A stretch of DNA of 64,000 nt from Spirochaetia bacterium (GCA_963668545.1 OY764868.1:1426065-1490064); one strand, 5' to 3'; shown: positions 2,592 through 27,663, numbered from the stretch's first letter. The notes: generated from the letters alone by a model not told the origin. Numbers and translations: made by a program.

Positions 2592-2602
2592 AAGGATTAC
2601 AG

Positions 2603-3805: not shown

Positions 3806-5001
3806 GAAATTTCATAAAGCGTGCTGTAAAAAGGATATCAAAACTTGACCAGAACCAGATTCTGAATCTGATTAATATTCTGACAGATGAAAATGAACTG
3901 CTCGAAATTGTTCTGGATTCAATGACAGACGGGCTTATAGTTTCTGACAGGGAGGAAAACCTTCTTTTTATCAATAAATCGGCCAAAAGGCTTCTGGGGA
4001 CACAGTATCTGAATGAAAATGTTGAAAACAGCCTGTGGGATGCTGTTCCAGACAGAAAGATCAGGGAAATGCTTGTCGAGTCTCTCAACAGACATGATGA
4101 CAGAACCGTAAACAACTATATTGATACAAACAAAAAGGAATCAAGGATTCTCGAGTTTACAACAACTCCCCTTGTAAGGGAAAAATGTATATACGGAAAT
4201 ATTATCATGATCAAGGATATTACCGAGAGAAAAATCAGGGAAACAAAGCTGAGAAGGGCTGAAAGCCTTGCTTCGCTTACTACGCTTGCGGCAGGTGTTG
4301 CGCATGAGATAAAAAACCCGCTTGGTTCTATCAGTATATATCTACAGCTTGTTGAAAAACTAGTTTCAAAAAAAGAGGATGATCCTGATAAGGAAAAAAT
4401 ACTTGGAAACCTGTCAGTTATTAATGAAGAGGTGGACAGGCTTAACCAGATTGTTGTGGATTTCCTTTTTGCAGTAAGACCTATTAATCTTGATCTTGAA
4501 TACAACAACATTAACAAGATTATTGATGAAACCCTTGATTTCATGAAGGTGGATTTTGATGAATCGGGGATAAAGGTGATAAAGGAGCTTTCTGATGATG
4601 TTCCTGATATCATGCTGGACAGCAGGTTTGTCAAACAGGCTATAATAAACCTCATTAAAAACGCAGAAGCTGCAATGAAGGAAAAAGAAGGGATACTTGA
4701 AATAAGATCTTATCTTAAAGACAGCAATGTGATGCTTGATATAAAAGACAACGGATCAGGGATACCTGAAAGAATAATTGGAAGAATATTTGAGCCGTAT
4801 TTCACAACAAAGGAATTCGGTTCCGGAATAGGCCTTACTCTGGTATATAAGATTATAAGGGAGCATAAAGGCGATATAGCAATCTCCTCTGTCGAGGGTG
4901 AGGGAACAACGTTCACACTGAGTTTTCCTGCACACAAGAAGGAACAGAAACTACTAAGCTGGGAAGGAGGTAACAGTGGAATTTTCGATACTTGTTGCTG
5001 A
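3802..5001 (+). CDS. cytoplasmic PAS-domain sensor histidine kinase
   Basis: 399 aa with no TM segment. PAS-like N-terminus, an H-box (AAGVAHEIKNPLGSI), and ATPase N/G boxes (NLIKNAEAA; DNGSGIPE; GSGIGLTLV). Overlaps the downstream response regulator by 26 nt. Confidence 0.85.
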   Translation: MRNFIKRAVKRISKLDQNQILNLINILTDENELLEIVLDSMTDGLIVSDREENLLFINKSAKRLLGTQYLNENVENSLWDAVPDRKIREMLVESLNRHDDRTVNNYIDTNKKESRILEFTTTPLVREKCIYGNIIMIKDITERKIRETKLRRAESLASLTTLAAGVAHEIKNPLGSISIYLQLVEKLVSKKEDDPDKEKILGNLSVINEEVDRLNQIVVDFLFAVRPINLDLEYNNINKIIDETLDFMKVDFDESGIKVIKELSDDVPDIMLDSRFVKQAIINLIKNAEAAMKEKEGILEIRSYLKDSNVMLDIKDNGSGIPERIIGRIFEPYFTTKEFGSGIGLTLVYKIIREHKGDIAISSVEGEGTTFTLSFPAHKKEQKLLSWEGGNSGIFDTCC

Positions 5002-6325
5002 TGATGAAAAAAACATACGTTTCGGCCTCGGTCAGGCCCTTGAAGGGGAAGGATATAATACATTTCTTGCGGAAAACGGGTTAAAAGCGCTTGAAATAAT
5101 TGAAAAGGAAAATATTGATATAGTTATCACAGACCTCAGAATGCCTGAAATGACAGGGGAGGAACTTCTTAAAAGAATTTCAAAAGACCATAAGAATATT
5201 CCTGTAATTATCCTCACCGGGCACGGTACAATTGAAAATGCTGTACAGACAATGAGGGACGGTGCATATGATTTCATGACAAAACCTCTTAATCTTGAAC
5301 ACCTGTTCCTGATTATAAAAAGGGCACTTAAAAACCGTGAGCTTGTCCTTAGCAACAAGGCTCTTCAGGAGGAAGTTGAGAAGATAAGGAACAACAAGCT
5401 TAAGGTTATAGGTAAAAGCGCTGCTATTAAAAAGGTCCTGGATACAGTACAGCAGATTGCATCAACAAGAGCTTCAGTGCTTGTAACAGGTGAAAGCGGA
5501 GTAGGCAAGGAAGTTATTGCAGATGTAATCCACAGTTTATCAGACAGGAATGATAAACCATTTATCAAGGTACACTGTGCAGCACTTTCAGATACCCTTC
5601 TCGAGTCTGAACTTTTCGGGCACGAGAAAGGGGCGTTTACAGGTGCTGTTGCCAGAAAAAGGGGTCGTTTTGAGCTGGCCCACAGGGGTACAATTTTTCT
5701 GGACGAGATAGGGGAGATAAACCAGTCGACACAGATAAAGCTTCTGAGGGTTCTTCAGGAAAGGACATTTGAAAGAGTCGGGGGAGAGGAAACTGTAAGT
5801 GTGGATGTCAGAATTATTTCTGCAACCAACAAGGACCTTGAAAAAGAGGTTGAAAAGGGTAATTTCAGGGAAGATCTATATTACAGGCTAAATGTTGTAA
5901 AACTTGATATTCCCCCTTTAAGGGAAAGAAAGGATGATATCCCTCTTCTGGTAGCTTCATTTCTCAAGGATTTTTCAAGGGAGAACAATAAAAACATAGA
6001 GGGACTTGACCAGAAGGCACAGGCTGCACTTTATAACCATAACTGGAAGGGAAATATCAGGGAACTCAGAAACTGCATTGAAAGCGCTGTTGTAATGGCA
6101 AGGGAGAGTATTATAAGCTATGATGATCTTCCCTTGTCTGTTAAAAGCGACAGCAGTGCTGATTTTATAAACATAAAAACCGGTGTCACACTTGAAGAAG
6201 TTGAAAAGACGGTTATACAGAGTACGCTGAACAGCCTTAACGGCAATAAAAGCAGAACAGCCGAAGTGCTTGGGATTGGGCGGAAAACTCTTCACAGAAA
6301 GCTTAACGAGTATAATCTTCAGTAG
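4976..6325 (+). CDS. sigma54-dependent response regulator, NtrC family (REC + AAA+ + Fis-type HTH)
   Basis: 449 aa. Receiver domain with phospho-acceptor context (DIVITDLRMPEMTG). Walker A GESGVGKE, GAFTGA loop (GHEKGAFTGA), and a C-terminal HTH (RTAEVLGIGRKTLHRKL). Confidence 0.9.
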   Translation: MEFSILVADDEKNIRFGLGQALEGEGYNTFLAENGLKALEIIEKENIDIVITDLRMPEMTGEELLKRISKDHKNIPVIILTGHGTIENAVQTMRDGAYDFMTKPLNLEHLFLIIKRALKNRELVLSNKALQEEVEKIRNNKLKVIGKSAAIKKVLDTVQQIASTRASVLVTGESGVGKEVIADVIHSLSDRNDKPFIKVHCAALSDTLLESELFGHEKGAFTGAVARKRGRFELAHRGTIFLDEIGEINQSTQIKLLRVLQERTFERVGGEETVSVDVRIISATNKDLEKEVEKGNFREDLYYRLNVVKLDIPPLRERKDDIPLLVASFLKDFSRENNKNIEGLDQKAQAALYNHNWKGNIRELRNCIESAVVMARESIISYDDLPLSVKSDSSADFINIKTGVTLEEVEKTVIQSTLNSLNGNKSRTAEVLGIGRKTLHRKLNEYNLQ

Positions 6326-14791: not shown

Positions 14792-14817
14792 AAAAAAGCC
14801 CGGCAGAAAAACCGGGC
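14792..14817 (-). terminator. rho-independent terminator of groES, shared with the convergent dinG
   Basis: Stem GCCCGG/CCGGGC with an 8-nt loop. On the minus strand it is followed by TTTTTT. Confidence 0.7.
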
Positions 14818-14842
14818 ATATCAGATAATCAGGAAATTAAAA

Positions 14843-15109
14843 TTATTCTACAATTGCAATAATATCATTTGCCTTGAGAATGAGGAATTCCTCCCCATCG
14901 ATTTTGATAGATGTTCCGGCATATTTATCATACATGATTTTCTGGCCGATTTTAACTTTAATTACATCTTTATCATCACCAATAGCTGATACAACGCCTG
15001 TCTGGGTTTTTTCCTGTGCTGTCTGAGGTATGTATAGTCCCCCTTTTGTTTTTTCTTCTGACTCAGAGATTTTAACAAGTACACGGTCCCCTAAAGGTGT
15101 GATTTTCAT
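14843..15109 (-). CDS. groES: co-chaperonin GroES
   Basis: 88 aa, MKITPLGDRVLVK...GGLYIPQTAQEK. No groEL follows it. The downstream space is occupied by the convergent dinG. Confidence 0.95.
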   Translation of the reverse strand: MKITPLGDRVLVKISESEEKTKGGLYIPQTAQEKTQTGVVSAIGDDKDVIKVKIGQKIMYDKYAGTSIKIDGEEFLILKANDIIAIVE

Positions 15110-15391
15110 ATAATCCTCCTGTGGAAATATATTATATTTGATTTTTGTGTTTTTTATTAATCAAAAATATACGAATGTTCTTAATATTGGTCAAGATAAA
15201 TATATCAGGAAACATAAAAATCATTTTACTGAATGATAATGGGTCAAAATGAACCTTAATTACTTACAGACTGAACATGTGTGTCGAAATGATACTGTAT
15301 AATAAAAGGAGTGATTTCAAGGAAAAAGTTAAAGTTAATATAAATATATATATTATAAGGAATTAAATAATTTTTAACTGGTTTATGGAAT

Positions 15392-15407
15392 TGGCATGAA
15401 CTTTGCT
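15392..15407 (+). promoter_or_regulatory. sigma54 (RpoN) -24/-12 promoter: TGGCAT-gaact-TTGCT
   Basis: GG at 15393-15394 and GC at 15405-15406 with canonical spacing (consensus TGGCAC-N5-TTGCW). About 25 nt upstream of the ATG of the RpoS-like gene. RBS GAGGTGA at 15420-15426. Confidence 0.7.
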
Positions 15408-15430
15408 TTATATAGCTGAGAGGTGATAAA

Positions 15431-16300
15431 ATGACAGCAGAAAGAACTAGGCTTTATAACAGCCAGTCAAATGATGAAAATGTATTATCAATCTATCTTA
15501 AAGAAATTAATGCAATACCGCTTCTTTCAAGAGAAGATGAGGATAAATATGCCAGGCTTGCAGCTGATGGCGATGAAAAGGCAAGAGAGATACTTATTAA
15601 ATCCAATCTCCGTTTTGTTGTTAATGTTGCCAAGAAATATCAGAACAAGGGAATTCCCCTTTCTGATCTTATCAATGAAGGTAATATAGGTTTGATGAAT
15701 GCAATAGAAAAGTATGATGTCGACCGCGGCTATCATTTTATTTCATATGCAGTATGGTGGATAAAACAGTCAATTCTCAAGTCAATAGGCGAAAAATCAA
15801 GAATGATAAGGCTGCCGTTAAACAGAGCAGGTGAACTGGTGCAGATAGAAAGGGCAAAAAAGGAACTACTTTCAGAGAATGGCATTGATCCCGAGCTTCA
15901 GGAAATAGCTGATGCAGTAGGACTTGATGAGGAACATGTAAGAGATCTCATTGATATATCACGTGATCTTGTTTCTATAGATAATCCTGTAAAGTCAGGT
16001 GAAAAAGAATCTGCACTTCTGAGTGATTATATTGTTGATAATAAGACACCTCAGCCGGAAGATATTGTTATTGACAGTTCTCTCAAGGAGGAAATAAACA
16101 AACTTCTTGAAACACTTTCAGAAAAGGAAGCTGATATAATTGAACAGAGATTCGGTCTTAACGGTATTATACCTATGTCGCTGAAGGAAATTGGAGACAG
16201 ATATAACCTGACAAAAGAAAGGATAAGACAGATAGAAAAGAAAGCTATTGACAGAATGAAACATGTTTCAAGAAGCCGTTATCTGGAAGCTTTTGTTTGA
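15431..16300 (+). CDS. rpoS: group-2 sigma70-family sigma factor (RpoS-like; regions 1.2-4.2, no region 1.1)
   Basis: 289 aa. Region 2 (DLINEGNIGLMNAIEKYD; YAVWWIKQSI) and region 4.2 HTH (SLKEIGDRYNLTKERIRQIEKKAIDRM). Too short for RpoD. Preceded by a sigma54 promoter, as for Borrelia rpoS. Confidence 0.8.
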   Translation: MTAERTRLYNSQSNDENVLSIYLKEINAIPLLSREDEDKYARLAADGDEKAREILIKSNLRFVVNVAKKYQNKGIPLSDLINEGNIGLMNAIEKYDVDRGYHFISYAVWWIKQSILKSIGEKSRMIRLPLNRAGELVQIERAKKELLSENGIDPELQEIADAVGLDEEHVRDLIDISRDLVSIDNPVKSGEKESALLSDYIVDNKTPQPEDIVIDSSLKEEINKLLETLSEKEADIIEQRFGLNGIIPMSLKEIGDRYNLTKERIRQIEKKAIDRMKHVSRSRYLEAFV

Positions 16301-16346
16301 TATGATTTTTTTTCTATATTTTACAAATAATTAAAAAATAATATCG

Positions 16347-16383
16347 ATAACCGTAGGTGATAATACTTATTGCCTGCGGTTAT
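16347..16383 (+). terminator. stem-loop downstream of the sigma factor gene (ATAACCGtAGG...CCtGCGGTTAT inverted repeat)
   Basis: 11-bp imperfect inverted repeat with a 15-nt loop, 46 nt after the stop codon. No strong T-tract follows. Confidence 0.35.
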
Positions 16384-16510
16384 ATTGACATACATTTCTT
16401 TATAATTTAATCTTATGTCGAAAAATCTTATTTTTCCGTTTTAGCTTTAAAAATAATGTTAATAAATATTCATTAATTTTATTAGAATTTATCTGGAGGT
16501 CAGAAAAGTA

Positions 16511-19168
16511 ATGTCAGAAAAATTTGTTTATTTCTTTGGTGGAGGATCTGCTGACGGTAAGGCAGAAATGAAGGAACTTCTCGGGGGAAAGGGTGCCAAC
16601 CTTGCTGAGATGACTAATCTCGGTATTCCGGTTCCTCCCGGATTTACTATTTCAACAGGTGTATGTAAATCTTATTATGACAATAATAAAACTTACACAG
16701 ATGCTGTTAAAGAGCAGGTTGCAGAAAATGTAGCAAAGCTTGAAAAAGTATTGGGACAGAAATTTGGAGATCCTTCCAATCCATTATTAGTATCTGTAAG
16801 ATCAGGTGCTGCAGTTTCAATGCCTGGTATGATGGATACAGTTCTCAACCTCGGTCTTACAGACGAAGTTGTTGAAGCTGTTGCAAAATCAACTGGAAAT
16901 CCGAGATTTGCATGGGATGCATACAGAAGATTCATCCAGATGTTCGGTGATGTTGCAATGGGTGTTCCTCATCACGACTTTGAAGAAATTCTTGCAGGTG
17001 TAAAAAAAGAAAAAGGTGTAACAGAAGACCTTGATCTTGATGCAGATGATCTTAAAGAAGTTGTTACAAGATACAAAAAAGCATACAAAGACTACCTGAA
17101 GGAAGATTTTCCTCAGGATCCTATGACACAGCTCTGGGCAGCTATTGATGCTGTATTCGGTTCATGGAACAACCCGAGAGCAATCAAATACAGAGCAATC
17201 AACGGTATTGTCGGCCTTCTCGGAACAGCTGTAAACGTTCAGTCAATGGTTTTCGGTAACTACGGCGATTCTTCAGGAACAGGTGTATGTTTCTCAAGAG
17301 ACCCCTCTACAGGTGAAAACTACTTCTACGGTGAATACCTGATGAATGCTCAGGGAGAAGATGTTGTTGCAGGTATCAGAACTCCTGAAACACTTGCTTC
17401 ACTTGAAAAAGCAGATCCGAAAATGTATAAAGAACTTGTCGGATACAAAGAAAAACTTGAAGACCACTACAGAGATATGCAGGATATCGAGTTCACAATT
17501 CAGGAAGGAAAACTCTACATTCTCCAGACAAGAAATGCAAAGAGAACAGGTCCTGCTGCTGTAAGATGTGCAGTAGAAATGGTTGAAGAAGGTGCTATAA
17601 CAAAAGAAACAGCTGTTACAAGAGTAACTCCTGATCAGCTTGATCAGCTTCTCCATCCGATGATTGACAAGAAAACAAAGGGTTCTCTCGAACTTCTTGC
17701 TAAAGGTCTCAATGCTTCTCCAGGCGCTGCATGCGGTCAGGTTGTTTTTACAGCAGATGAAGCAGAAAAATGGGTAGAAGAGGGCAAGAAAGTTCTCCTC
17801 GTGAGAAGGGACACATCTCCTGAAGATATCGGCGGTATGGTAGTTGCTGAAGGTATTCTCACTTCAACAGGCGGTATGACTAGTCATGCAGCTGTAGTTG
17901 CAAGAGGTATGGGTACTCCCTGTGTTGCAGGCTGTAAAGAACTTGATATTACAAATAAAACAATCAAGGTTAAAGGCAAGGAAATCAAAGAAGGTGACTG
18001 GCTTACAATTGACGGATCAACCGGTGAAGTATTCAACGGTGAAGTTCCTCTTGTAGAAGTTACTTTTGATGAAAGACTTACAAAATTCCTCTCATGGGCT
18101 GATGAAATAAGACTTTCTGCTGAAAGAAAGGGACTTCCTAAAGGTTTCCTCGTAAGAACAAATGCTGACCAGCCGCATGATGCAAAAGTTGCAAGAGATT
18201 TCGGTGCTGAAGGTATAGGTCTCTGCAGAACTGAGCACATGTTCTTTGAAGGTGATAAACTCCAGTCATTCCAGGAAATGATTGTTGCAAAAGATGTTGC
18301 AGACAGAAAAAAAGCTCTTGCTAAAATACTTCCACTTCAGATTACTGACTTTGCAGGTATTTTTGAGGCAATGGATGGTCTTCCTGTAACTGTAAGACTT
18401 CTTGATCCGCCTCTTCATGAGTTTGTTCCACATACAGACGAAGATATAAAAGCACTTGCTTCTACAATTGGTATAACTGCTGCTGAACTCAAATCAAAAG
18501 TTGATTCACTCCACGAACTCAACCCGATGCTTGGTCACAGGGGATGCCGACTTGGTATTTCTTTTCCTGAAATCTATGATATGCAGGTTGAAGCTATCAT
18601 GACAGCTGCATGTGAGCAGACAAAGAAAGGAATAAAAGTTCTTCCTGAAATCATGATTCCTCTTGTAGGAACATATGTGGAACTCAAGATGCTCAGAGAA
18701 AATGCGGAAAAAGTTATTGCTTCTGTATTTGAAAAACTGGGAATAAAAGTTGACTACAAGATCGGTACAATGATTGAGATTCCAAGAGCTGCTATTACAG
18801 CAGACGAAGTTGCTAAATATGCAGACTTCTTCTCATTCGGTACTAACGACCTTACACAGATGACTTTCGGATACTCACGAGATGATATCGGCGGATTCCT
18901 CCCGGATTACCTCGGACAGGGTGTGCTTGAAAGAGATCCTTTCCAGGCTATAGATCAGAGCGGTGTTGGCGTGCTTGTTGATATGGCTGCAAAAAAATCA
19001 AGAGCTCTCAAACCTGAGATCAAACTTGGTATCTGCGGTGAGCACGGCGGTGAAGGTTCTTCAATCGAATTCTGCTACAGAACAGGGCTTAACTATGTTT
19101 CATGTTCTCCATACAGAGTTCCGCTTGCAAGGCTTTCTGCAGCTCAGGCTGTACTCAAGAACAGATAA
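16511..19168 (+). CDS. ppdK: pyruvate, phosphate dikinase
   Basis: 885 aa. ATP-grasp N-terminus, phospho-histidine swivel domain (GGMTSHAAVVARGMG) and PEP-utilising TIM-barrel C-terminus (GICGE). Confidence 0.95.
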   Translation: MSEKFVYFFGGGSADGKAEMKELLGGKGANLAEMTNLGIPVPPGFTISTGVCKSYYDNNKTYTDAVKEQVAENVAKLEKVLGQKFGDPSNPLLVSVRSGAAVSMPGMMDTVLNLGLTDEVVEAVAKSTGNPRFAWDAYRRFIQMFGDVAMGVPHHDFEEILAGVKKEKGVTEDLDLDADDLKEVVTRYKKAYKDYLKEDFPQDPMTQLWAAIDAVFGSWNNPRAIKYRAINGIVGLLGTAVNVQSMVFGNYGDSSGTGVCFSRDPSTGENYFYGEYLMNAQGEDVVAGIRTPETLASLEKADPKMYKELVGYKEKLEDHYRDMQDIEFTIQEGKLYILQTRNAKRTGPAAVRCAVEMVEEGAITKETAVTRVTPDQLDQLLHPMIDKKTKGSLELLAKGLNASPGAACGQVVFTADEAEKWVEEGKKVLLVRRDTSPEDIGGMVVAEGILTSTGGMTSHAAVVARGMGTPCVAGCKELDITNKTIKVKGKEIKEGDWLTIDGSTGEVFNGEVPLVEVTFDERLTKFLSWADEIRLSAERKGLPKGFLVRTNADQPHDAKVARDFGAEGIGLCRTEHMFFEGDKLQSFQEMIVAKDVADRKKALAKILPLQITDFAGIFEAMDGLPVTVRLLDPPLHEFVPHTDEDIKALASTIGITAAELKSKVDSLHELNPMLGHRGCRLGISFPEIYDMQVEAIMTAACEQTKKGIKVLPEIMIPLVGTYVELKMLRENAEKVIASVFEKLGIKVDYKIGTMIEIPRAAITADEVAKYADFFSFGTNDLTQMTFGYSRDDIGGFLPDYLGQGVLERDPFQAIDQSGVGVLVDMAAKKSRALKPEIKLGICGEHGGEGSSIEFCYRTGLNYVSCSPYRVPLARLSAAQAVLKNR

Positions 19169-19186
19169 TCTGAAAAGATTTAAAAC

Positions 19187-19218
19187 AGGGCAGGGGATTC
19201 GAGTCTCCTGCCTTTTTT
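19187..19218 (+). terminator. rho-independent terminator of ppdK
   Basis: GC-rich imperfect stem GGCAGGGGATTC/GAGTCTCCTGCC followed by TTTTTT. Confidence 0.75.
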
Positions 19219-19284
19219 AGTTACAGGATGTAACTATCCCGAGTGCGCAGGGATGCGCAAAAACGAGGGAGTTACAGGATGTAA
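19219..19284 (+). repeat. two perfect 15-bp direct repeats AGTTACAGGATGTAA (19219-19233 and 19270-19284) flanking a GCGCAgggaTGCGC palindrome; degenerate third copy near 19337
   Basis: Seen directly in the sequence. Lies between the ppdK terminator and the endonuclease III-like gene. Confidence 0.6.
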
Positions 19285-19394
19285 TATTATACCTGGCACA
19301 GAATCCTGAGTGAGGTGTGCGCAATAGGCACAGGGTTAGACAGGATGTCTTCACTGTAGGGTTATGGAAAGCGATAAAAGAGTTTTGTATTAAC

Positions 19395-20129
19395 ATGAAA
19401 GAAATAATAGGCCCTGATGAATTATACAGTGAATTATACAATCATTACGGTCCGCAGGGATGGTGGCCTGTTATTATTGAAGACCATCAGTTTGAAAAGG
19501 ATAACCGGGGATATCACAAAGAAAACCCTGTTTTTGAAACCAGCTTAAAAGATAAATTTGAAATAATAACAGGTGCGGTGCTTACACAGAATACAGCCTG
19601 GAAAAACGTTGAAAAATGCCTGATGAAGCTTAAGGAAAACAGTATTGATTCTGCTGGGTTGTTTCTTGAAAAGGATGAAAATGATATAAAGTCACTTATT
19701 AAATCATCAGGTTATTATAACCAGAAATATAAAAAGCTGAAAATTGTAATGGAATATCTTTGTGCAAAAGGTTACCTGACTGATAAAAAAAATTATGAAA
19801 ACAGGATTCCCGAAAGAAGCGGACTTGTAGATCTCTGGGGAATAGGGGAAGAAACAGCTGATTCAATACTTCTGTATGCATTCAATGTCCCCACCTTTGT
19901 TATTGATATGTATACAAAACGTCTTACCGAAAGATTAAATCCGGACCTTAAAATGAAGAGTTATAAGGAATATAAAAAGTATTATGAAAATAATCTTGAC
20001 AGGGATGTAGAACTATATAATGAATATCATGCACTGGTAGTTAAACATTGTGTGGAGAAATGCAGAAAAAAGCCTATCTGCAGTATGTGCTTTCTAAAAG
20101 AAAGGTGTTCATATTACCAAATAAGTTGA
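19395..20129 (+). CDS. endonuclease III-like HhH-GPD DNA glycosylase with Fe-S cluster loop
   Basis: HhH-GPD motifs (LTQNTAWKNVEK; LWGIGEETADSILLYAF) and a C-terminal Cys cluster (CVEKCRKKPICSMCFLKERC). The ORF-track start at 19317 is probably upstream read-through, with the real start at MKEIIG (19395). Confidence 0.7.
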   Translation: MKEIIGPDELYSELYNHYGPQGWWPVIIEDHQFEKDNRGYHKENPVFETSLKDKFEIITGAVLTQNTAWKNVEKCLMKLKENSIDSAGLFLEKDENDIKSLIKSSGYYNQKYKKLKIVMEYLCAKGYLTDKKNYENRIPERSGLVDLWGIGEETADSILLYAFNVPTFVIDMYTKRLTERLNPDLKMKSYKEYKKYYENNLDRDVELYNEYHALVVKHCVEKCRKKPICSMCFLKERCSYYQIS

Positions 20130-20241
20130 TTTATATAAATAATATATATAAGTAGACAGAATATACATTATCGGAAGCAATAATGAATTCAGCCGGTAAA
20201 ATAAAAAGCTGAATATTCTATTTGGTTTACAGGTAAACTGA

Positions 20242-20523
20242 TTATTTCTTTTCGCTTACCTTGTGGTATATGTAGATTACTGTCATTGATACAACAAGCG
20301 GAGGGAAAATATTTACAACGCCGTTTACCTTTGTAAGAGCATCAATAATCCATTTAAAATAATATTCAATTATTGCACCGAGGAATGAACCGATAATGGA
20401 GACAATAAGCACTCCCCAGAAGTTTCCTATAAAAGCCTTGTTGAAGACATAAAAGAAAACAAGAGCTGTTCCGAAACCAATAAGCAGGTAAACAAGCGCT
20501 ATATTAAAGTAGTAAGAAAACAT
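20242..20523 (-). CDS. small integral membrane protein (possibly GlsB/YeaQ/YmgE-like)
   Basis: 93 aa, three hydrophobic helices, Gly-rich. Confidence 0.4.
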   Translation of the reverse strand: MFSYYFNIALVYLLIGFGTALVFFYVFNKAFIGNFWGVLIVSIIGSFLGAIIEYYFKWIIDALTKVNGVVNIFPPLVVSMTVIYIYHKVSEKK

Positions 20524-20544
20524 AAAATCTGCCTCAATAATTTT

Positions 20545-21237
20545 TTAATATGTTATGTAACCAAGCCATACAGGCTTGCTGTAGATATTATATACATTGT
20601 CATCTTTGCCGTATGCAAAAACATACATTGAAAGAGCAAGTTGTCCTGATGATCTGTCAGAATCACCAGAAACATGATCAGCCGGTATAAAAGTTTTATA
20701 TTCAGTTTTTCCGGAAGTTGAATTATACTGTGTAATATTTCTTCTAAGGGTTCTATCAGAATAACCTGAGTATTCAACTCTTGGAGCTGTATCAGAAGAA
20801 ACCTCATCAAAATATACTGTAAGTGTAAAGGATGTATCCCTGTCTGAATAATCAACAGGAATCATCGGATAAGTTGTGGTTTCCTCTGTTGTGAGAACTG
20901 TGTTTAATCTTCTATACCCTACATTTTTAAGATCATCAGGTTCAGGCTCTGATGTGTTGAATATTTTTTTATCATCATCTGCAATTTCAGAATGACTGTT
21001 ATAGTATTTATAGTAAATCTCGTAACCCCTGAATACTTCAGGATCATTATCTGATCTGTTGTATATTAAAGCTGAACTGGGAATACCCGGTTCAAAAGTG
21101 GTTACATTGGGAGCTGACAGATACGGAGATGTATAAAGACCGCAGGATGACGTAAATATTGTAATGAGTATAAATATTTTTAAATGTAAGAAAAAATTAC
21201 GGGGTATCATACCCTCCCTTGACATCAAGAAGCTCAT
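20545..21237 (-). CDS. hypothetical lipoprotein
   Basis: 230 aa. N-terminal hydrophobic segment ending in SSCG (lipobox-like), then a Tyr/Ser/Asp-rich domain. The 5' end overlaps the cyclase 3' end. Confidence 0.45.
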   Translation of the reverse strand: MSFLMSREGMIPRNFFLHLKIFILITIFTSSCGLYTSPYLSAPNVTTFEPGIPSSALIYNRSDNDPEVFRGYEIYYKYYNSHSEIADDDKKIFNTSEPEPDDLKNVGYRRLNTVLTTEETTTYPMIPVDYSDRDTSFTLTVYFDEVSSDTAPRVEYSGYSDRTLRRNITQYNSTSGKTEYKTFIPADHVSGDSDRSSGQLALSMYVFAYGKDDNVYNIYSKPVWLGYITY

Positions 21238-23587
21238 AGATGAGTACAGGTTTGTTTTTACCCTTAACCCTTATATTGTCAAGTTCCCTTACAACAACAT
21301 GTTCATTTACAAGTGCATGAGTGAACTCACTGATTATGACATTTGTTTTATACTGCTTGTTTGTACCTTCAAGCCTTGCACCGAGGTTTACATTATCACC
21401 CATAAGTGTGTAGTTCATTCTACCCATGGATCCCATGTTTCCTACTGTCATTACACCGGAATTAAGACCGATACCGATATTAATCCTTTTTTCTTCAGGC
21501 CATCCTTCATTCAGCTTGTGAAGTGCATCCATCTGTTTTAAGGCGCACTTGCATGCGAATAATGCATGTTCCTCCTGAGGAATCGGGGCACCCCAGAAGC
21601 ACATTATTTCATCCCCTACATACTTATCAAGTGTACCGTTAAACTCAAGGATTATATCTGTCATTGCTGTCAGATAAATATTAAGATGGTTTACAAGTTC
21701 CTGAGGTGTCATGGTTTCTGAAAGGGTTGTAAATCCCCTGATATCTGAAAAAAGAACTGTAAGGTTTTTGTCAACACCACCGAGTTCGGGAGGATTATCG
21801 AGAATCTGATCAACTACTGCAGGACTTACATATTTACCGAACATGTTCTTAATCCTTTTCTTGTCCTTTTCCTCTGTCATAACCCTGTAGATTACAATAG
21901 ATATGAAAGTAAGCGATCCTCCCAACGCAGGAGACGGGAAATCAAGTACTATGTTGAAATTGTCAAATATGATACTAGTTGTTATGAAATAGGCCGCTAT
22001 TGAAACAATTGAAAAAAGTGCTGCCCAGAGGGTTGATAGCCTTGAAGTAACTATAGCCGTAATAAAAACAAGAATAAACAGTAATAAAACATTTACCCAT
22101 TTGTCCACTTCTGTAATAAATTTATTCATTATAATGGTGTTCAGTGAGTTTGCATGTATCTCGACACCATACATGAGTCCGTAAGGTGTTGTTTTTTCAT
22201 CTGCTGCAATACCTCTTGCGAACGGGCCTGTCATGAGGATCTTGTTACCGACAGCTTTTGTTTTCGGCCATTTTGAAGGATCAGGACCAGGGGATTTCGC
22301 AGCATATCCTGAATAGGACCTGATTGGAAATGTCTGGTGTCCTCCGGGGTCTGCAGTTGAAGGATTTCCCATGAAATTTATAAGCATCTGTCCATGTTCA
22401 TCTATCGGGATAATAATATCATCAAGAACCTTTTCAACTCCCGGTTTCTTTAAAGAGCCGTCTTTATTATATTTAGGCTGTTTAACAGTTATCCTGTAAG
22501 GTTCCCATGACTGCTTTTCCGTATTGTAGACTTCAGGTGACGGTATTTTTATGTATTCCCCTACTTTCACCTCAAGATCTTCAGGCGATTTGTTGAAATA
22601 CTGCATAGCAAGAGAAAGAGTTATTGAAGGAACAAATGTGTCTTTGTATTTTTTTACAATAAAGTAATAACTGTCCTGCCCTTCTGCAGTTTTTGATTTA
22701 ATTGGAGGAGAATTTGTCTGTATAGTATTTTTAAGATCTGTAATCTGTTCCTCTGTAAGCGGATACTTTATCGGGTGATCAATTCCATTAATATCAGTCC
22801 ATCCCAGTCTTTCAAAGTTTTTGTGATCAATGGTAAAGGATGGAGAAAGTTCTTCCAGATTAATTACATCCATAAGAATGGACGATTTTGAAATTAGACC
22901 CTGTCTTCTGTAGACCTTGTCGAAGTCTTCCCTGAAATTTGCATGCCCGTAACCCCTGCATGCTCTTGCAAGAGGCTGAAGAGGCGGCTGAAGACCTGTA
23001 TATGAGCTGATTGTATGCCAGTTCCCTTCGATATTTGTTATTCTGCCGTAGTTGTCATAAAGAAGTTCCTGTCTTTTTACATAATCGTCACGGATGGCAT
23101 CTGACGGTGGTACTTCGTCCAGGACTGTTTCAAGAAAAACATTTCCGTTTTCCTTGATAGCTTCAACAAGAAGAGCATCATCGTAGGCTTTTCTTTCATC
23201 AGGTTCAATGAAAAAAACGTCAATAAATAATGCCCTTTCCCGTTCATTCTGGTTCTGTATCCTGGAAAAGGACTTTATAAGGTCTGCATGTCTGTATCTC
23301 GGAAAAGGCCATTTTCCGAATTTGTTGAGACTTCTGAAATCTATACCGACTATCATTATATCCGGTGATATATTCGGATTCTGTACAGACTGAGTTACAC
23401 CTTCCTGGATATAGGTTTTCTGTGAGACATTTTTAAGGTAAAAATTGACATCAAGCATTTTCAACTTAAGCTTATTGGTAATATCAGTAAAGTTATCAAC
23501 ACCGATTATAAGGAAAAATATAAAAAGTGCTATTATTATACCGAATATCTTTGTTTCAAATACTTTTATAGATCCCTTTTTACCCAC
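21197..23587 (-). CDS. CHASE2-sensor class III adenylate/guanylate cyclase
   Basis: 796 aa. N-terminal TM, large periplasmic region, TM cluster, then cyclase homology domain (LTVLFSDIRGFTTLSE...KYVGDEIMCFWGAP...GIGLNSGVMTVGNMGS). Confidence 0.85.
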   Translation of the reverse strand: MGKKGSIKVFETKIFGIIIALFIFFLIIGVDNFTDITNKLKLKMLDVNFYLKNVSQKTYIQEGVTQSVQNPNISPDIMIVGIDFRSLNKFGKWPFPRYRHADLIKSFSRIQNQNERERALFIDVFFIEPDERKAYDDALLVEAIKENGNVFLETVLDEVPPSDAIRDDYVKRQELLYDNYGRITNIEGNWHTISSYTGLQPPLQPLARACRGYGHANFREDFDKVYRRQGLISKSSILMDVINLEELSPSFTIDHKNFERLGWTDINGIDHPIKYPLTEEQITDLKNTIQTNSPPIKSKTAEGQDSYYFIVKKYKDTFVPSITLSLAMQYFNKSPEDLEVKVGEYIKIPSPEVYNTEKQSWEPYRITVKQPKYNKDGSLKKPGVEKVLDDIIIPIDEHGQMLINFMGNPSTADPGGHQTFPIRSYSGYAAKSPGPDPSKWPKTKAVGNKILMTGPFARGIAADEKTTPYGLMYGVEIHANSLNTIIMNKFITEVDKWVNVLLLFILVFITAIVTSRLSTLWAALFSIVSIAAYFITTSIIFDNFNIVLDFPSPALGGSLTFISIVIYRVMTEEKDKKRIKNMFGKYVSPAVVDQILDNPPELGGVDKNLTVLFSDIRGFTTLSETMTPQELVNHLNIYLTAMTDIILEFNGTLDKYVGDEIMCFWGAPIPQEEHALFACKCALKQMDALHKLNEGWPEEKRINIGIGLNSGVMTVGNMGSMGRMNYTLMGDNVNLGARLEGTNKQYKTNVIISEFTHALVNEHVVVRELDNIRVKGKNKPVLIYELLDVKGGYDTP

Positions 23588-23602
23588 TTGTATGTCTCCT
23601 TG

Positions 23603-24298
23603 TTATTTTATCAATTCAGAAGCTTTCAGGTAAATTATACGGTCTCTGGCAAAATTTGTCCAACCACTATTTGAATAATTGTCGACGATCTCTGAATAGC
23701 TTTTCAGAGCTTTATCATAGTTTTCCGAAGATTCAGAAAGCCTTCCTATTGAAAAAAGAATTCCCGGAATATCAGGATAGGAATCTGAATATTTATCTTT
23801 TACAGATTCATATGTTTTAAGAGCTTCATCATAATTACCAAGTTCCTCGCTGCAGACACCGCTGTTGTAAAGAGCAATAGGAGCAAGATAAGTATCGGAA
23901 TACCTTTCTGCATATGCCTTGAATGACTCAGAGGATTTCTCATATTCCTTTCTTGCAAAATAGATATTGCCTTTCATGAAAACAGCCCTCTGTCCTGCAT
24001 AAAAGGAAGGATATTCCTTTATAAGTGAATCAAGAGAGTCGATTATTTTTTTAATATCATCATCTGACAGATCGCCGTCTTTTTCTGAAAGAAGATTGGA
24101 ATAATCTGTCTGGATTTTTTCAATTGCAAGTGCAGATTCTTCATTTTTGCCGGATTTGAAGTTAATTGAAACAGCTATACTTGAAACTGCAATTACAATA
24201 AGGACTGAAAAGATTATAATAATTTTACTGTAGTTTGAAAGAAAACTGTTCAGGCTGTTTAATATTTTATCTTTTCCTGTAATTTCATCCTGGTGCAT
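23603..24298 (-). CDS. membrane-anchored TPR-repeat protein
   Basis: 231 aa. One N-terminal TM helix (IIIFSVLIVIAVSSIAVSI) followed by TPR-like repeats (AGQRAVFMKGNIYFARKEYEKS...). Confidence 0.55.
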   Translation of the reverse strand: MHQDEITGKDKILNSLNSFLSNYSKIIIIFSVLIVIAVSSIAVSINFKSGKNEESALAIEKIQTDYSNLLSEKDGDLSDDDIKKIIDSLDSLIKEYPSFYAGQRAVFMKGNIYFARKEYEKSSESFKAYAERYSDTYLAPIALYNSGVCSEELGNYDEALKTYESVKDKYSDSYPDIPGILFSIGRLSESSENYDKALKSYSEIVDNYSNSGWTNFARDRIIYLKASELIK

Positions 24299-25309
24299 TT
24301 AATACTCCTTGTTGTTAAATATATCAAGCTCTTTTATAAGCCTGGATAAGTATGTTCTCTGGATACCTAGCATATCTGCAGTTTTCATCTGGTTCCAGTT
24401 ATTGTACTTCAACGCTTTTATAATATAATTTTTTTTGAAATTTGTAACAGCTTTTTTTAGCGGTATTACAGTTTTTTTTAAATCGCTGCAGGAATCAAGT
24501 ATTATATCGCTTTCTTTTAAAGATGTATCAGCAGATAATACTGCTCTGTAAAGTGTGTTGAAAAGCTCCCTTACATTGCCGGGCCAGTCATATGATAATA
24601 GCTTGTCCATTGCAGAACTGTCTATTGTCCTTTCAGAGAATCCGGTTTTATTCAGAAAGTATTCTGCTAGATCAGGTATATCTTCCCTGTGATCCCTCAG
24701 GGGGGGTATTTCAAGGTTTAGAACATTTATCCTGTAAAGAAGCTCTTTTTTGAAATTTCCATCTGAAATTTCCTTATTGATATTTCTGTTTGTCGCTGCA
24801 ATAATTCTGACATCAATCTTCAGGGGATGTTCTGACCCTATCGGATATATTTCCCCATTTTCAATAACCCGCAATAAACTGGACTGTATATTCAACGGCA
24901 TTTCAAAAAGTTCATCTAGAAATATTGTGCCCTTATCAGCAGTCTGAAACCTTCCTTTTCTATCACGGGAGGCATCGGTAAAGGATCCCTTGAGATGTCC
25001 GAAAAGTTCTGTTTCAAAAAGATTTTCAGGTATTGAAGCACAGTTTATTTTTATGAAAGGTCTGTTTTTTCTTACGCTTTCAGAATGGATATAATCAGCA
25101 AAAATATCTTTTCCTGAACCGCTTTCTCCTGTAATAAGTACAGGAGCATCAGAAAGTGCAATTTTCTTTGCTTTGAGTAATGTTTTTTGTATTGTATTTC
25201 CGGAACCTGTTATTTTCTGATCTGTATAAAAAACAGGCAGCACCCGGTCAGGCTTGTCTGATGCTGAATTAGTGCTGCCTTTATCATTGAGATGATTATT
25301 AGTTGTCAC
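24299..25309 (-). CDS. sigma54-interacting AAA+ activator lacking an N-terminal sensory/receiver domain (PspF/HrpS-like architecture)
   Basis: 336 aa. Walker A GESGSGKD, GSFTDA in place of GAFTGA (GHLKGSFTDA), Walker B/R-finger region, and C-terminal HTH (KTADMLGIQRTYLSRLIKEL). Only about 35 aa precede the AAA+ core. Confidence 0.8.
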   Translation of the reverse strand: MTTNNHLNDKGSTNSASDKPDRVLPVFYTDQKITGSGNTIQKTLLKAKKIALSDAPVLITGESGSGKDIFADYIHSESVRKNRPFIKINCASIPENLFETELFGHLKGSFTDASRDRKGRFQTADKGTIFLDELFEMPLNIQSSLLRVIENGEIYPIGSEHPLKIDVRIIAATNRNINKEISDGNFKKELLYRINVLNLEIPPLRDHREDIPDLAEYFLNKTGFSERTIDSSAMDKLLSYDWPGNVRELFNTLYRAVLSADTSLKESDIILDSCSDLKKTVIPLKKAVTNFKKNYIIKALKYNNWNQMKTADMLGIQRTYLSRLIKELDIFNNKEY

Positions 25310-26999
25310 CCTGTTTTAAGAAATCACCAAGTGTTGCCATTGGTGCATCACCGTCATCCTGTATATATTTAGAAATCTCCTCTCTCTGGAGAGATTTTTT
25401 ATATTCCCTTATAGAAAGTGAAAGTTTTTTCTTTCTTGGGTTTATTTCAGTTACTGCTGCCTTGATCTTGTCGCCTACATTGTATTTTTCAAGTTCCTTG
25501 TCAGCATCTTCATTGTACTGATCTGAAATATTGCTTTTATTTATAAGACCTTCAATATCGCCCTGCACTTTCACAAAAAGACCGAAATCAGTTTTTCCGG
25601 ATATTTCACCTTCAATTACTTTGCCTTTCGGGAAGTTCTTGTAAAGGAAATCCCATGGATTTTCTTCAAGCTGTTTTACACCCAGTTTGATCCTTCTGTT
25701 TTCCTTGTCAATGCCTATAACAATAACCTTGATGTTCTCATCCTGTTTAAGAACTGAGAAAGTATTTTTAACTTTCTTTGTCCAGGAAAGGTCATCAATA
25801 TGAAGAAAACCGCTGATTCCCTCTTCAAGCTCAATAAAAGCACCTGCATTGGTAACTTTTGATATTTTTCTTTCCAGCTGTGTACCTACAGGATAGATTT
25901 CATCAATTTTGTCCCAGGGATTTTCAAATACCTGTTTTATACCTAGAGATATTCTTCCCTGCTCAAGATCGTATGAAAGAATCATGCATTCAACTTCATC
26001 ACCGATTTTGAATACTTCTTTGGGATGATTGATTTTTTTGACCCATGAGAATTCAGATATATGGGCCATTCCTTCAATACCTTCCTCAAGTTCAATAAAT
26101 GCACCGAAATCGGTGAGCTTGGTTACTTTTCCTGTAATAATGTCATTTACATGATATTTATTTTCGAAAGAAAACCAGGGGTTATCTGAAAAATGCTTTA
26201 ATGAAAGGTTTATTTTATTGTTTTCCTTATCAATGTTGATAAGTTTAAGCTTTATTTTCTGGTCTTTTTTTACATAATCCTTCGGTCTTGCTACATGTCC
26301 CCAGCTCATATCATTGATATGAAGAAGACCGTCAAAACCTCCGAGATCAATAAATGCACCGAAAGAAGCAATGCTTTTCACTGTTCCTTCTACCTCATCT
26401 CCAACCTGTGCATTTTCGAAAAATTCATCTTTCTTTTTATTCTGAATATCTGAGAGGTATTTTCTTCTGTTGAGAACAATATTCACTTTTTTATCGCTGT
26501 AAAGTCTCTCAATAAGGAAATCTGATTTTATATTGATATATTTATCAGGATCTTCAACCTTGACAACATCTGTTTTTGATATAGGGAGAAAAGCTCTTAT
26601 GCTGTGACCGAGAGAAACTTCAAATCCCCCCTTGATGCTTTTTGTAATGGTACCTTGAACAGGAAGCTTGTCCTGAAAAGCATTTTTAAGATTTATCCAG
26701 AATTCCTTTTCATCATATTTTCTTTTGGATACTACTATCTGTCCGTCCTTGCTTTCTTTTTTAACAAGAATTACTTTGACTTCATCATTCAGTTCAGGAG
26801 CCTTTTCAAATTCTGTTATAGGTATTTTTCCTTCAGATTTGTATCCGATGTCTATAAACACAGTTTCATTTGTTACCTGTATAACATTACCTGTAACTAC
26901 CTGTCCCTCTTCCAGATCATCGAGAGATTTCAGGTATTCTTCCTGAAGGTTTGTCTGGTTTATAGTGTCTTCGTTGATGATGTTTTCCTTCTCAGCCAT
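25299..26999 (-). CDS. rpsA: 30S ribosomal protein S1
   Basis: 566 aa with six S1 repeats (…GKIPITEFE…, …GLLHINDMSW…, …GMAHISEFSW…, …GFLHIDDLSW…). Confidence 0.9.
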   Translation of the reverse strand: MAEKENIINEDTINQTNLQEEYLKSLDDLEEGQVVTGNVIQVTNETVFIDIGYKSEGKIPITEFEKAPELNDEVKVILVKKESKDGQIVVSKRKYDEKEFWINLKNAFQDKLPVQGTITKSIKGGFEVSLGHSIRAFLPISKTDVVKVEDPDKYINIKSDFLIERLYSDKKVNIVLNRRKYLSDIQNKKKDEFFENAQVGDEVEGTVKSIASFGAFIDLGGFDGLLHINDMSWGHVARPKDYVKKDQKIKLKLINIDKENNKINLSLKHFSDNPWFSFENKYHVNDIITGKVTKLTDFGAFIELEEGIEGMAHISEFSWVKKINHPKEVFKIGDEVECMILSYDLEQGRISLGIKQVFENPWDKIDEIYPVGTQLERKISKVTNAGAFIELEEGISGFLHIDDLSWTKKVKNTFSVLKQDENIKVIVIGIDKENRRIKLGVKQLEENPWDFLYKNFPKGKVIEGEISGKTDFGLFVKVQGDIEGLINKSNISDQYNEDADKELEKYNVGDKIKAAVTEINPRKKKLSLSIREYKKSLQREEISKYIQDDGDAPMATLGDFLKQGDN

Positions 27000-27012
27000 T
27001 TGAAAAAAACTC

Positions 27013-27663
27013 CTAATATTTATTCTGCCTGTTTTTATTTATTTCAGACATTACTTTCTCACAAACTTGATCTATGGTCAAGTCCGAAGTATTCAAATAA
27101 ATTGCATCTTCAGTGATTTTTAAATTGCCGTATTCCTTGTTGCGGTCTATTTCATCCCTTTTTTTTATGCTTTCTTCAATTTCTCTAACGTTTTTCTGAC
27201 TTACTCCCTGATTGGATCTTCTTGAAGCCCTTGTTTCGATTGAAGCATCCAGAAAAACCTTGACATCGGCATCCGGGAAAACAACAGTTGTCATGTCTCT
27301 TCCTTCTGCAATTATGTCAAGATTTTCAGATACTGATCGGATCTTTCTGTTGATTTCAATCCTCAGCTCTTTTATGGAAGAAACCTCTGCAACATTTGAA
27401 TCAATTTCATCGGTGTGGAGAAAGTCTTCAACATCCATGCCGTTAAGATATATATGTGAATTTATAATCCTGATATCTGATTTTTCAGCAATTTCGATGA
27501 GTTTTTCAGAATCAGTCAAATCAATTTTACTGTTAATTGCTTCAAGGGTAACAGCCCTGTAAAAGTTACCTGTATTCAGATAAAAAAGATCTGCTTTTTG
27601 TGAAATTAGTTTTGCTATAGTGCTTTTTCCTACACCTGCCGGTCCGTCAATAGCTACTGTCAA
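27013..27663 (-). CDS. cmk: cytidylate kinase
   Basis: 216 aa. P-loop VAIDGPAGVGKST and the NMP-kinase fold. Confidence 0.9.
   Translation of the reverse strand: MTVAIDGPAGVGKSTIAKLISQKADLFYLNTGNFYRAVTLEAINSKIDLTDSEKLIEIAEKSDIRIINSHIYLNGMDVEDFLHTDEIDSNVAEVSSIKELRIEINRKIRSVSENLDIIAEGRDMTTVVFPDADVKVFLDASIETRASRRSNQGVSQKNVREIEESIKKRDEIDRNKEYGNLKITEDAIYLNTSDLTIDQVCEKVMSEINKNRQNKY

Follow-up and report, generated by a model that had tools for sequence, protein, structure and literature searches.

What controls a sigma-54-dependent activator that has no sensor domain and whose gene starts inside the gene for ribosomal protein S1? The question is raised by a 64-kb stretch of DNA from a Spirochaetia bacterium (GCA_963668545.1, OY764868.1:1426065-1490064), which is referred to below, at its full length, as the window. 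Between positions 20242 and 26999, on the minus strand, six genes overlap or sit 0 to 21 nt apart: rpsA, a gene for a 336-amino-acid AAA+/helix-turn-helix (HTH) sigma-54 activator, and genes for a tetratricopeptide repeat (TPR) protein with one transmembrane (TM) helix, a class III cyclase with a CHASE2 sensor, a lipoprotein, and a 93-amino-acid membrane protein. A preliminary description of the window had likened the activator to PspF and HrpS, had proposed the TPR protein as its anti-activator, and had treated its altered GAFTGA loop (GSFTDA) as an anomaly. The reading that we favor, at a probability of roughly 60%, is that the protein is a functional bacterial enhancer-binding protein (bEBP) of a Spirochaetia-specific, rpsA-linked family, that it belongs to a lineage without the GAF domain of its relatives and is uncoupled from ligand, and that its loop is a normal variant.

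The activator has the conserved machinery of a sigma-54-dependent protein

Pfam recognized a full-length Sigma54_activat domain (PF00158, 7e-65, residues 34 to 199), followed by AAA_lid_14 and by HTH_8 (2e-07, residues 292 to 327). No Pfam domain was found in the N terminus, where 33 poorly conserved residues precede the AAA+ domain. This agrees with the bare AAA+ plus HTH architecture, free of a sensor domain, that had been proposed earlier. The count of about 35 residues before Walker A has to be amended, because it is the AAA+ domain that about 33 residues precede, and Walker A itself (GESGSGK) occupies residues 61 to 67. Walker A, FLDE (residues 130 to 133), R168, and WPGNVRE with R247 were all invariant in the alignment. 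At about 50% overall identity, Walker A/B, the conserved arginines, sensor II, and the HTH did not vary between the short and long forms of the family described below, and the recognition helix of the HTH (IQRTYLSRL) was invariant across 120 homologues. The PDB entries matched by the protein included NtrC1, NifA, ZraR, and PspF (1e-55 to 1e-71). The open reading frame (ORF) thus apparently encodes a working sigma-54-dependent enhancer-binding protein.

The gene order defines a Spirochaetia module

The order (recA-...-scpA-scpB-rluB-cmk-)rpsA-bEBP-TPR-CHASE2 cyclase-~225-amino-acid protein-~92-amino-acid protein recurs in five independent Spirochaetia genomes or contigs. These are a closed 3.87-Mb metagenome-assembled genome (MAG; L081), a 123-kb contig with a second contig (L082/L083), Spirochaeta isovalerica (L084/L085), a further MAG (L086), and a Spirochaetia MAG (L001), which was the one true orthologue returned by a contig scan with exact peptide patterns. 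In a tblastn survey the synteny was absent from the other genome loci compared (L002 to L080, nearly all non-spirochaete). Finding the same gene order in five independent places therefore indicates that the module is real, and it answers the concern, raised in the preliminary description, that the bEBP, TPR, and cyclase genes might not be conserved together. The bEBP gene of this family always lies directly after (cmk-)rpsA and is followed by the genes for a YfgM-like TPR protein, a putative CHASE2 adenylate cyclase, a lipoprotein, and a small membrane protein. Searches of open-access text found no description of this rpsA-bEBP-TPR-cyclase module, as the preliminary description had supposed; what emerges is an undescribed, strongly conserved spirochaete module.

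About 90 of the 120 closest bEBP homologues are proteins of about 500 amino acids with an N-terminal GAF domain (GAF-AAA+-HTH; for example, L001, P0059, and P0065). The window protein falls among at least 30 GAF-less sequences of 317 to 349 amino acids, and these form a monophyletic group that is sister to the GAF clade in a neighbor-joining tree rooted with unrelated bEBPs. The short forms could not accommodate a GAF domain, as their gene begins inside rpsA. The N-terminal tails of the short forms align with the linker between the GAF and AAA+ domains of the long forms, which gives mild support for loss of the GAF domain over its gain. The absence of the domain in the window's lineage is thus probably a loss, and the receiver-less state that had been taken for a PspF/HrpS-type design is instead a lineage-specific absence.

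A shortened gene of this kind might also be a decaying, truncated, nonfunctional paralogue left after deletion of the sensor domain, an alternative that the preliminary description had itself foreseen. Such a relic would lack the GAF domain, as this bEBP does, and could be expected to show the GTG start codon with a poorly spaced Shine-Dalgarno sequence and the fast evolution that were found here: identity to the L081 orthologue is 66% for the bEBP, compared with 86% for rpsA and 87% for the cyclase (57% for the bEBP of L082). However, the rate of change is no lower in the TPR protein and the lipoprotein (52% and 54% to L081). The clade of 30 GAF-less sequences is deep as well as monophyletic and no frameshift was found in it, 81 alignment columns are invariant and are concentrated in the catalytic and DNA-binding motifs, and both the start codon and the overlap with rpsA are conserved. 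The invariance of Walker A/B, the arginines, sensor II, and the HTH therefore indicates that the bEBP is under constraint, and decay is a very improbable explanation.

The GSFTDA loop is typical of its lineage

The L1 loop of the window protein, G108-S-F-T-D-A113 (nt 24971 to 24988), keeps the Phe and the Thr of GAFTGA and is changed at positions 2 and 5. Studies of PspF and NtrC have found this Phe and this Thr to be critical, and both were nearly invariant across the alignment. The description of the substitution as uncommon is correct for bEBPs in general, since GAFTDA occurred in 3 of 79 unrelated bEBP loci, but within the protein's own family an Asp at position 5 is the rule: it was present in 98 of the 120 closest homologues (GAFTDA in 84, GSFTDA in 8, and GAYTDA in 6, with GAFTGA in the remaining 22). 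In the neighbor-joining tree both major clades have Asp at this position, GAFTGA forms one derived subclade of the long forms that includes re-reversals to GAFTDA, and GSFTDA is confined to the window protein's own subclade. A GAFTGA protein, P0065, sits at exactly the same locus. These distributions indicate that Asp at position 5 is ancestral in the family and interchanges with Gly at one and the same locus.

Published activators carry the same kind of loop. DVU2106 (GAFTDA) and DVU2275 (GAYTDA) of Desulfovibrio vulgaris are listed with sigma-54 regulons, and these variants were counted as preserving activity (PMC4641369). For VfmH of Dickeya (GAFTDA), no sigma-54 was pulled down, and the effect of the loop was stated to be unknown (PMC10714721). 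Common to these three proteins and the window protein is the Gly-to-Asp change at loop position 5. They differ in that they come from unrelated lineages with other domain contexts and in that only the window's subclade combines Ser at position 2 with Asp at position 5. With Asp ancestral, exchanged for Gly at a single locus, and published in activators with sigma-54 regulons, GSFTDA is best read as the family's normal, tolerated variant of GAFTGA, predicted to be compatible with sigma-54 activation, and not as a defect. A false lead is thereby removed: the loop is a lineage-typical variant and not a broken motif.

The altered loop could alternatively have made the protein a sigma-54-independent ATPase/HTH regulator of sigma-70 promoters, like VpsR, TyrR, or Rhodobacter NtrC. 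The Asp at position 5, the Ser at position 2, and the failure of VfmH to pull down sigma-54 would fit such a regulator. This proposal is nevertheless improbable, given that the loop retains its nearly invariant Phe and Thr, that orthologues with canonical GAFTGA occupy the same locus, that the D. vulgaris activators with GAFTDA or GAYTDA have sigma-54 regulons, and that the Sigma54_activat match extends over the full length of the domain.

Within the GAFTGA subclade (P0044 to P0119; for example, L086 8001-9509), P0077 and P0086 have reverted to GAFTDA, a change from Asp to Gly and back to Asp at one locus. These sequences offer a ready-made set of natural mutations at position 5 of GAFTGA.

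The TPR protein is an unlikely anti-activator

Like E. coli PspF and HrpR/HrpS, the window bEBP consists of an AAA+ domain and a C-terminal HTH behind a short N-terminal tail, and its AAA+ domain aligns to PspF structures at about 5e-55. It differs from them in having no linked gene for a PspA- or HrpV-type inhibitor, in its location, which is after rpsA and not next to a psp or hrp operon, and in its domain-less state, which probably arose by loss of a GAF domain. It also falls well below the cutoffs of the NCBIfam PspF equivalogs (TIGR02974, 247 bits versus 443.55; NF008622, 213 bits versus 529). The best NCBIfam scores of the AAA+/HTH part were for NorR (309 bits) and NifA (308 bits). The protein is expected to work like the domain-less PspF/HrpS type, yet by these comparisons it is not a member of that group.

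The TPR protein matched TPR_6, TPR_2, and TPR_21 of Pfam, the last (PF09976) at 44.1 bits (cutoff, 25.5) along residues 18 to 202, which include the TM segment. The archetype of TPR_21 is YfgM of E. coli (2.6e-51, 174.5 bits), an ancillary subunit of SecYEG. In direct BLAST comparison the similarity to YfgM was weak (22% identity, E = 0.006), so that membership in the family rests on the Pfam profile, and the match to the NCBIfam TPR domain of CpoB/YbgF (6e-18) was below its cutoff. The window protein resembles YfgM and the TPR domain of CpoB/YbgF in its layout, in which a TPR-like domain comes after a TM helix at the N terminus. In YfgM the N-terminal part contains a TM segment and the C-terminal domain is periplasmic (PMC9643414). 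Because of the TPR_21/YfgM match and the subthreshold similarity to the periplasmic CpoB/YbgF, the TPR domain of the window protein is most likely periplasmic, a location from which it could not reach a cytoplasmic AAA+ ring. Its partner could be the CHASE2 domain, the lipoprotein, or the small membrane protein.

These results bear on the scheme of the preliminary description, in which the domain-less activator is held in trans, as PspF is by PspA or HrpS by HrpV, by the TPR protein, which would serve as an anti-activator relaying envelope stress. The scheme accounts for a bEBP without a sensory domain, there are precedents for domain-less bEBPs regulated in trans, and the TPR gene is always the neighbor of the bEBP gene, starting directly after its stop codon. 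Against it, the TPR_21 match spans the TM and TPR regions of a protein whose relative YfgM has a periplasmic C-terminal domain, and only about 25 residues of the TPR protein would face the cytoplasm. A YfgM-like, probably periplasmic protein is therefore unlikely to be a PspA-type anti-activator. Since the same TPR gene also accompanies the GAF-containing orthologues, it is not a substitute for the missing sensor. Neither Pfam nor NCBIfam detected a PspA- or HrpV-like domain in the operon, and the PspF equivalog score (247 bits, cutoff 444) is low. We consider this scheme unlikely. It is possible that a trans-acting inhibitor is encoded elsewhere.

The other two membrane-associated products could not be placed in any family of Pfam or NCBIfam, even when permissive E-values were allowed. 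The lipobox of the 230-amino-acid lipoprotein ORF (..SCGL/..SSCGL) was conserved in five orthologues, and the 93-amino-acid protein is hydrophobic, so that the trailing lipoprotein and small membrane protein were both identified correctly at the outset. The lipoprotein probably starts at the ATG at 21210 (MIPRNFF), which overlaps the stop codon of the cyclase. The 93-amino-acid protein is the most conserved of the module, above rpsA (96% versus 86% identity to L081, where the orthologue lies at 14803-15084; 84% to L082).

A putative cyclic AMP circuit in the GAF-containing relatives

The cyclase matched CHASE2 (1.3e-31) and Guanylate_cyc (3.2e-24) in Pfam. The best PDB match of its catalytic domain was Pseudomonas aeruginosa CyaB (3R5G, 2e-36), and cyanobacterial class III cyclases also matched. 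Aligned to 3R5G, its motifs are FSDIRGFT, LDKYVGDE, and NYTLMGDNVNLGARLE, and, like CyaB, it has two metal-binding Asp residues, the Asn/Arg pair, and a Lys (LDKYVGD)/Thr (NYTLMGD) substrate pair. Synechocystis Cya2 (PDB 2W01), which we take to be a guanylate cyclase and whose PDB entry is labeled adenylate cyclase, has Glu/Gly at the substrate-pair positions. The window enzyme is thus probably an adenylate cyclase with cyclic AMP (cAMP) as its product. It shares with CHASE2 class III adenylate cyclases and CyaB a layout of an extracytoplasmic CHASE2 sensor, TM helices, and a class III domain with the Lys/Thr pair, and it differs from them in that its gene is fixed in an operon that also encodes the bEBP, the YfgM-like TPR protein, the lipoprotein, and the small membrane protein.

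The GAF domain of the long-form relatives resembles domains that bind cyclic nucleotides. That of P0059 was most similar to those of Anabaena CyaB2 (1YKD, 1e-26) and Leptospira Lcd1 (5W10, 8e-25), followed by PDE5, PDE2, and PDE10 (1e-17 to 1e-21), with far weaker matches to the GAF domains of bEBPs (for example, Nlh1, 5e-10). The 5W10 structure is that of the Lcd1 GAF domain (PMC11800159), and Lcd1 is activated by cAMP (PMC8846402). The long forms have the GAF-AAA+-HTH layout of NorR, NifA, FhlA, and Aquifex Nlh1/Nlh2, but their GAF domain is like the cAMP/cGMP-binding ones of CyaB2, Lcd1, and the PDEs and unlike those that sense NO, 2-oxoglutarate, or formate. The window protein differs from all of these bEBPs in having no GAF domain.

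That an activator with a cAMP-type GAF domain is encoded two genes from an apparent adenylate cyclase is suggestive of a direct circuit in the lineages with the long form, and it makes plausible the second-messenger link that had been proposed for this locus. In such a circuit an envelope signal would stimulate the CHASE2 cyclase, cAMP would bind the GAF domain, the AAA+ domain would be released, and sigma-54-dependent transcription would follow. The GAF-containing members are good candidates for the first cAMP-responsive sigma-54 activators; no paper on a cyclic-nucleotide-gated bEBP was found in searches of open-access text. Because the window's lineage has no GAF domain, its activator would be uncoupled from ligand gating and is most likely intrinsically active, probably constitutively. 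Cotranscription with cmk-rpsA, and the translational coupling that the conserved GTG start would provide, might then set its level. The GAF-less clade thus offers a natural comparison for how a circuit is rewired when a sensor is lost.

A conserved sigma-54 promoter precedes an RpoS-like gene

A gene for an RpoS-like sigma factor lies on the opposite strand of the window, behind the only element of the entire 64 kb that matched the -24/-12 consensus with at most one mismatch (Table 1). A -24/-12 element was present within 200 nt upstream of 24 of 26 orthologous genes (at least 50% identity; the set includes the contig carrying the Sediminispirochaeta smaragdinae protein), compared with a background of 0.018 per 200 nt. 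Orthologues of the RpoS-like factor, with 63 to 93% identity, occur across Spirochaetia. Two palindromes lie 111 nt (proximal) and 151 nt (distal) upstream of the -24 element, the proximal one being the sole hit in the entire window when up to two mismatches are allowed. Many orthologues keep the proximal palindrome in a similar place, at -101 to -111 in most and at about -104/-105 to -120 in others, and where a second palindrome was seen it was 40 bp further upstream. Promoter and palindromes were also found in genomes of the GAF-less clade (L169 and L170). Two palindromes so placed upstream of a -24 element have the appearance of a classical enhancer arrangement. When the window was scanned together with about 130 kb from related spirochaete loci, a search area that took in the bEBP operon and the sequence on either side of it, no other sigma-54 promoter or enhancer palindrome was found.

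The conserved promoter and enhancer indicate that sigma-54 is used in this organism, and together with the second bEBP of the window they suggest that the genome encodes sigma-54. Searches of open-access text did not find a sigma-54-dependent rpoS outside Borrelia.

A groES gene (14843-15109, minus strand), alone and with no groEL beside it, is divergent from the RpoS-like gene. It has a sigma-70-type promoter at 15166-15194 (TTGACC-N17-TATATT on the minus strand) that is shared with L101, L169, and L170, and the enhancer palindromes lie beyond this conserved promoter.

Two candidate activators for the RpoS-like promoter

The window encodes a second bEBP, the last gene of a plus-strand run at 1006-6325 that consists of murG, cvpA, holB, a PAS histidine kinase gene, and the gene for this activator, which has a receiver domain and a canonical GAFTGA loop. 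The kinase and activator genes have the same order and domains as hk2-rrp2 of Borrelia (PMC2940757), where Rrp2 is the sole bEBP and drives rpoS (PMC12655853; PMC3037356). The window thus contains the same kinds of parts as the Hk2-Rrp2-RpoN-RpoS pathway of Borrelia burgdorferi, namely, a PAS kinase, a REC-AAA+-HTH activator, and an RpoS-like gene behind a sigma-54 promoter. Borrelia Rrp2 has a receiver domain and hk2 upstream; ORF 4976-6325 has a Response_reg domain and the rpsA-linked bEBP does not, and the latter is therefore not the Rrp2 counterpart.

The Rrp2-like pair is about 9 kb from the sigma gene, on the opposite side from the rpsA-linked bEBP (about 8 kb). Rrp2-like homologues with 64 to 92% identity are found in the same genomes as the sigma factor, even on 11- to 15-kb contigs with the sigma gene, and the Rrp2-like protein is more conserved than the rpsA-linked bEBP. 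Given this conservation, these shared contigs, and the Borrelia precedent, we lean somewhat toward the Rrp2-like protein as the activator of the RpoS-like promoter.

It is also possible, although doubtful, that the rpsA-linked bEBP binds both GTGTCA-N3-TGACAC sites and activates the RpoS-like promoter, alone or jointly. Expression of the RpoS-like factor would then be cAMP dependent in the GAF-containing relatives and coupled to growth or to rpsA in the window's lineage. Conservation of the promoter and enhancer extends over the taxa in which the bEBP family occurs, the bEBP and sigma genes are 8 to 15 kb apart on the same contigs in many genomes, and the invariant recognition helix of the family is matched by an invariant enhancer. 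The palindrome core also fits the GT-N7-AC of the GAF-type bEBP NorR (PMC2831303), a weak argument. More speculatively, Borrelia Rrp2 is reported to activate rpoS without an enhancer (Blevins 2009, as cited in PMC3037356), so that the enhancer may belong to a different, lost activator. However, an Hk2/Rrp2-like pair that is more conserved and shares short contigs with the sigma gene flanks the promoter on the other side, and Rrp2 as the sole bEBP drives rpoS in Borrelia. The HTH of the Rrp2-like protein is equally invariant. With the recognition helices of both bEBP families invariant, HTH conservation therefore does not discriminate between them.

The two conserved enhancer palindromes at the RpoS-like promoter set it apart from that of Borrelia, for which the same source describes enhancer-independent activation by Rrp2. 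The conserved promoter and its palindromes suggest that the RpoN-to-RpoS arrangement of Borrelia is ancient and was originally enhancer dependent. Parts of the Rrp2-RpoN-RpoS virulence cascade, with a classical enhancer, are thus found in free-living Spirochaetia, which makes the origin of the pathway testable. A broader and rather unlikely proposal joins these elements: the rpsA-linked family would comprise cAMP-gated sigma-54 activators that are fed by the neighboring CHASE2 cyclase and bind the RpoS-like enhancer instead of, or together with, Rrp2, and the Borrelia cascade would descend from such a circuit. If that were true, the RpoN-RpoS cascade would have come from a circuit leading from an envelope signal through cAMP and sigma-54 to RpoS, with deletion of the cAMP gate in the window's lineage as an experiment of nature.

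Several considerations count against our interpretation of the rpsA-linked bEBP as a functional, ligand-uncoupled sigma-54 activator. The tree does not strictly polarize the loss or gain of the GAF domain, and the bEBP evolves faster than rpsA or the cyclase. The NKFDE-like motif of the relatives' GAF domain is imperfect (N-K-x5-F-x3-D-L), and the predicted binding of cAMP by this domain is drawn from similarity. That the protein is most likely constitutive after loss of the GAF domain is argued from NorR-type precedents, in which the GAF domain represses the AAA+ domain (PMC2941729). A search for the RpoN box in the window and the compared loci found rpoN only in a Chloroflexi locus (L048). 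In the window there is one strong sigma-54 promoter for two bEBPs, and by analogy with Borrelia the activator of rpoS should be the REC-type, Rrp2-like protein.

Layout and expression of the module

All of the ORFs of the preliminary description were present on the minus strand at the coordinates that it gave, and Pfam found the Sigma54_activat, TPR, CHASE2, and Guanylate_cyc domains that it had called for. Table 1 lists these genes with the other features discussed here.

Table 1. Location of the genes and regulatory elements of the window
Feature	Position	Strand	Evidence or remarks
rpsA, ribosomal protein S1	25299..26999	-	six S1 domains (Pfam)
GAF-less sigma-54 activator (bEBP), 336 aa	24299..25309	-	Pfam, NCBIfam, and PDB matches; alignment; neighbor-joining tree
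YfgM/CpoB-like TPR protein, 231 aa, single N-terminal TM helix	23603..24298	-	Pfam, NCBIfam
CHASE2-sensor class III nucleotidyl cyclase, 796 aa, probably adenylate cyclase	21197..23587	-	Pfam, PDB alignment
Conserved lipoprotein, no known family	20545..21210 (ORF listed as 20545-21237)	-	five-orthologue alignment, junction sequence
Multi-TM membrane protein, 93 aa, no known family	20242..20523	-	orthologue identity
RpoS-like group 2 sigma-70 family factor, 289 aa	15431..16300	+	NCBIfam rpoS TIGR02394 3e-81, below cutoff
Sigma-54 -24/-12 promoter, TGGCAT-N5-TTGCT	15392..15407	+	starts 39 nt and ends 23 nt before the RpoS-like ATG
Two palindromes, GTGTCA-N3-TGACAC, 40 bp apart	15241-15255 (distal), 15281-15295 (proximal)		enhancer-like
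Hk2/Rrp2-like pair: PAS histidine kinase; REC-AAA+-HTH bEBP with canonical GAFTGA	3802-5001; 4976-6325	+	domains

The junctions are tight. The last 11 nt of rpsA overlap the start of the bEBP gene, as had been described, and the overlap is kept in L081 (11 nt) and L082 (17 nt); the start codon inside the 3' end of rpsA is GTG, however, and not the ATG initially assigned, and it is also GTG in L081 and L082. The junction sequence bears out the remaining arrangement: the ATG of the TPR gene, preceded by an AAGGAG Shine-Dalgarno sequence, directly follows the TAA stop codon of the bEBP gene, and 15 nt separate the TPR stop codon from the start of the cyclase gene. A scan of the operon for sigma-70 promoters and terminators gave promoter-like counts at chance level and no clear internal terminator. 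An element at 23634-23662 on the minus strand, inside the 3' end of the TPR gene and about 45 nt ahead of the cyclase start codon, matches 11 of 12 positions of a sigma-70 promoter (TGGACA-17-TATAAT) and, with promoter-like counts in the region at the chance level, could be an internal promoter for the cyclase.

cmk and rpsA are separate genes in the window (25299-27663), L081, L082, and L086, and they are fused in one ORF of about 780 to 807 codons in some lineages of the GAF form (L001, 900-3323; L084/L085, 5635-7986). In L081, the closest closed genome, a block of small ORFs (15197-21014) lies between the module and a region with HhH-GPD, PPDK, and rpoS-like genes. It encodes Peptidase_M15_4 and a REP_ORF2-G2P replication protein, is phage- or plasmid-like in appearance, and increases the separation from 8 kb to about 15 kb.

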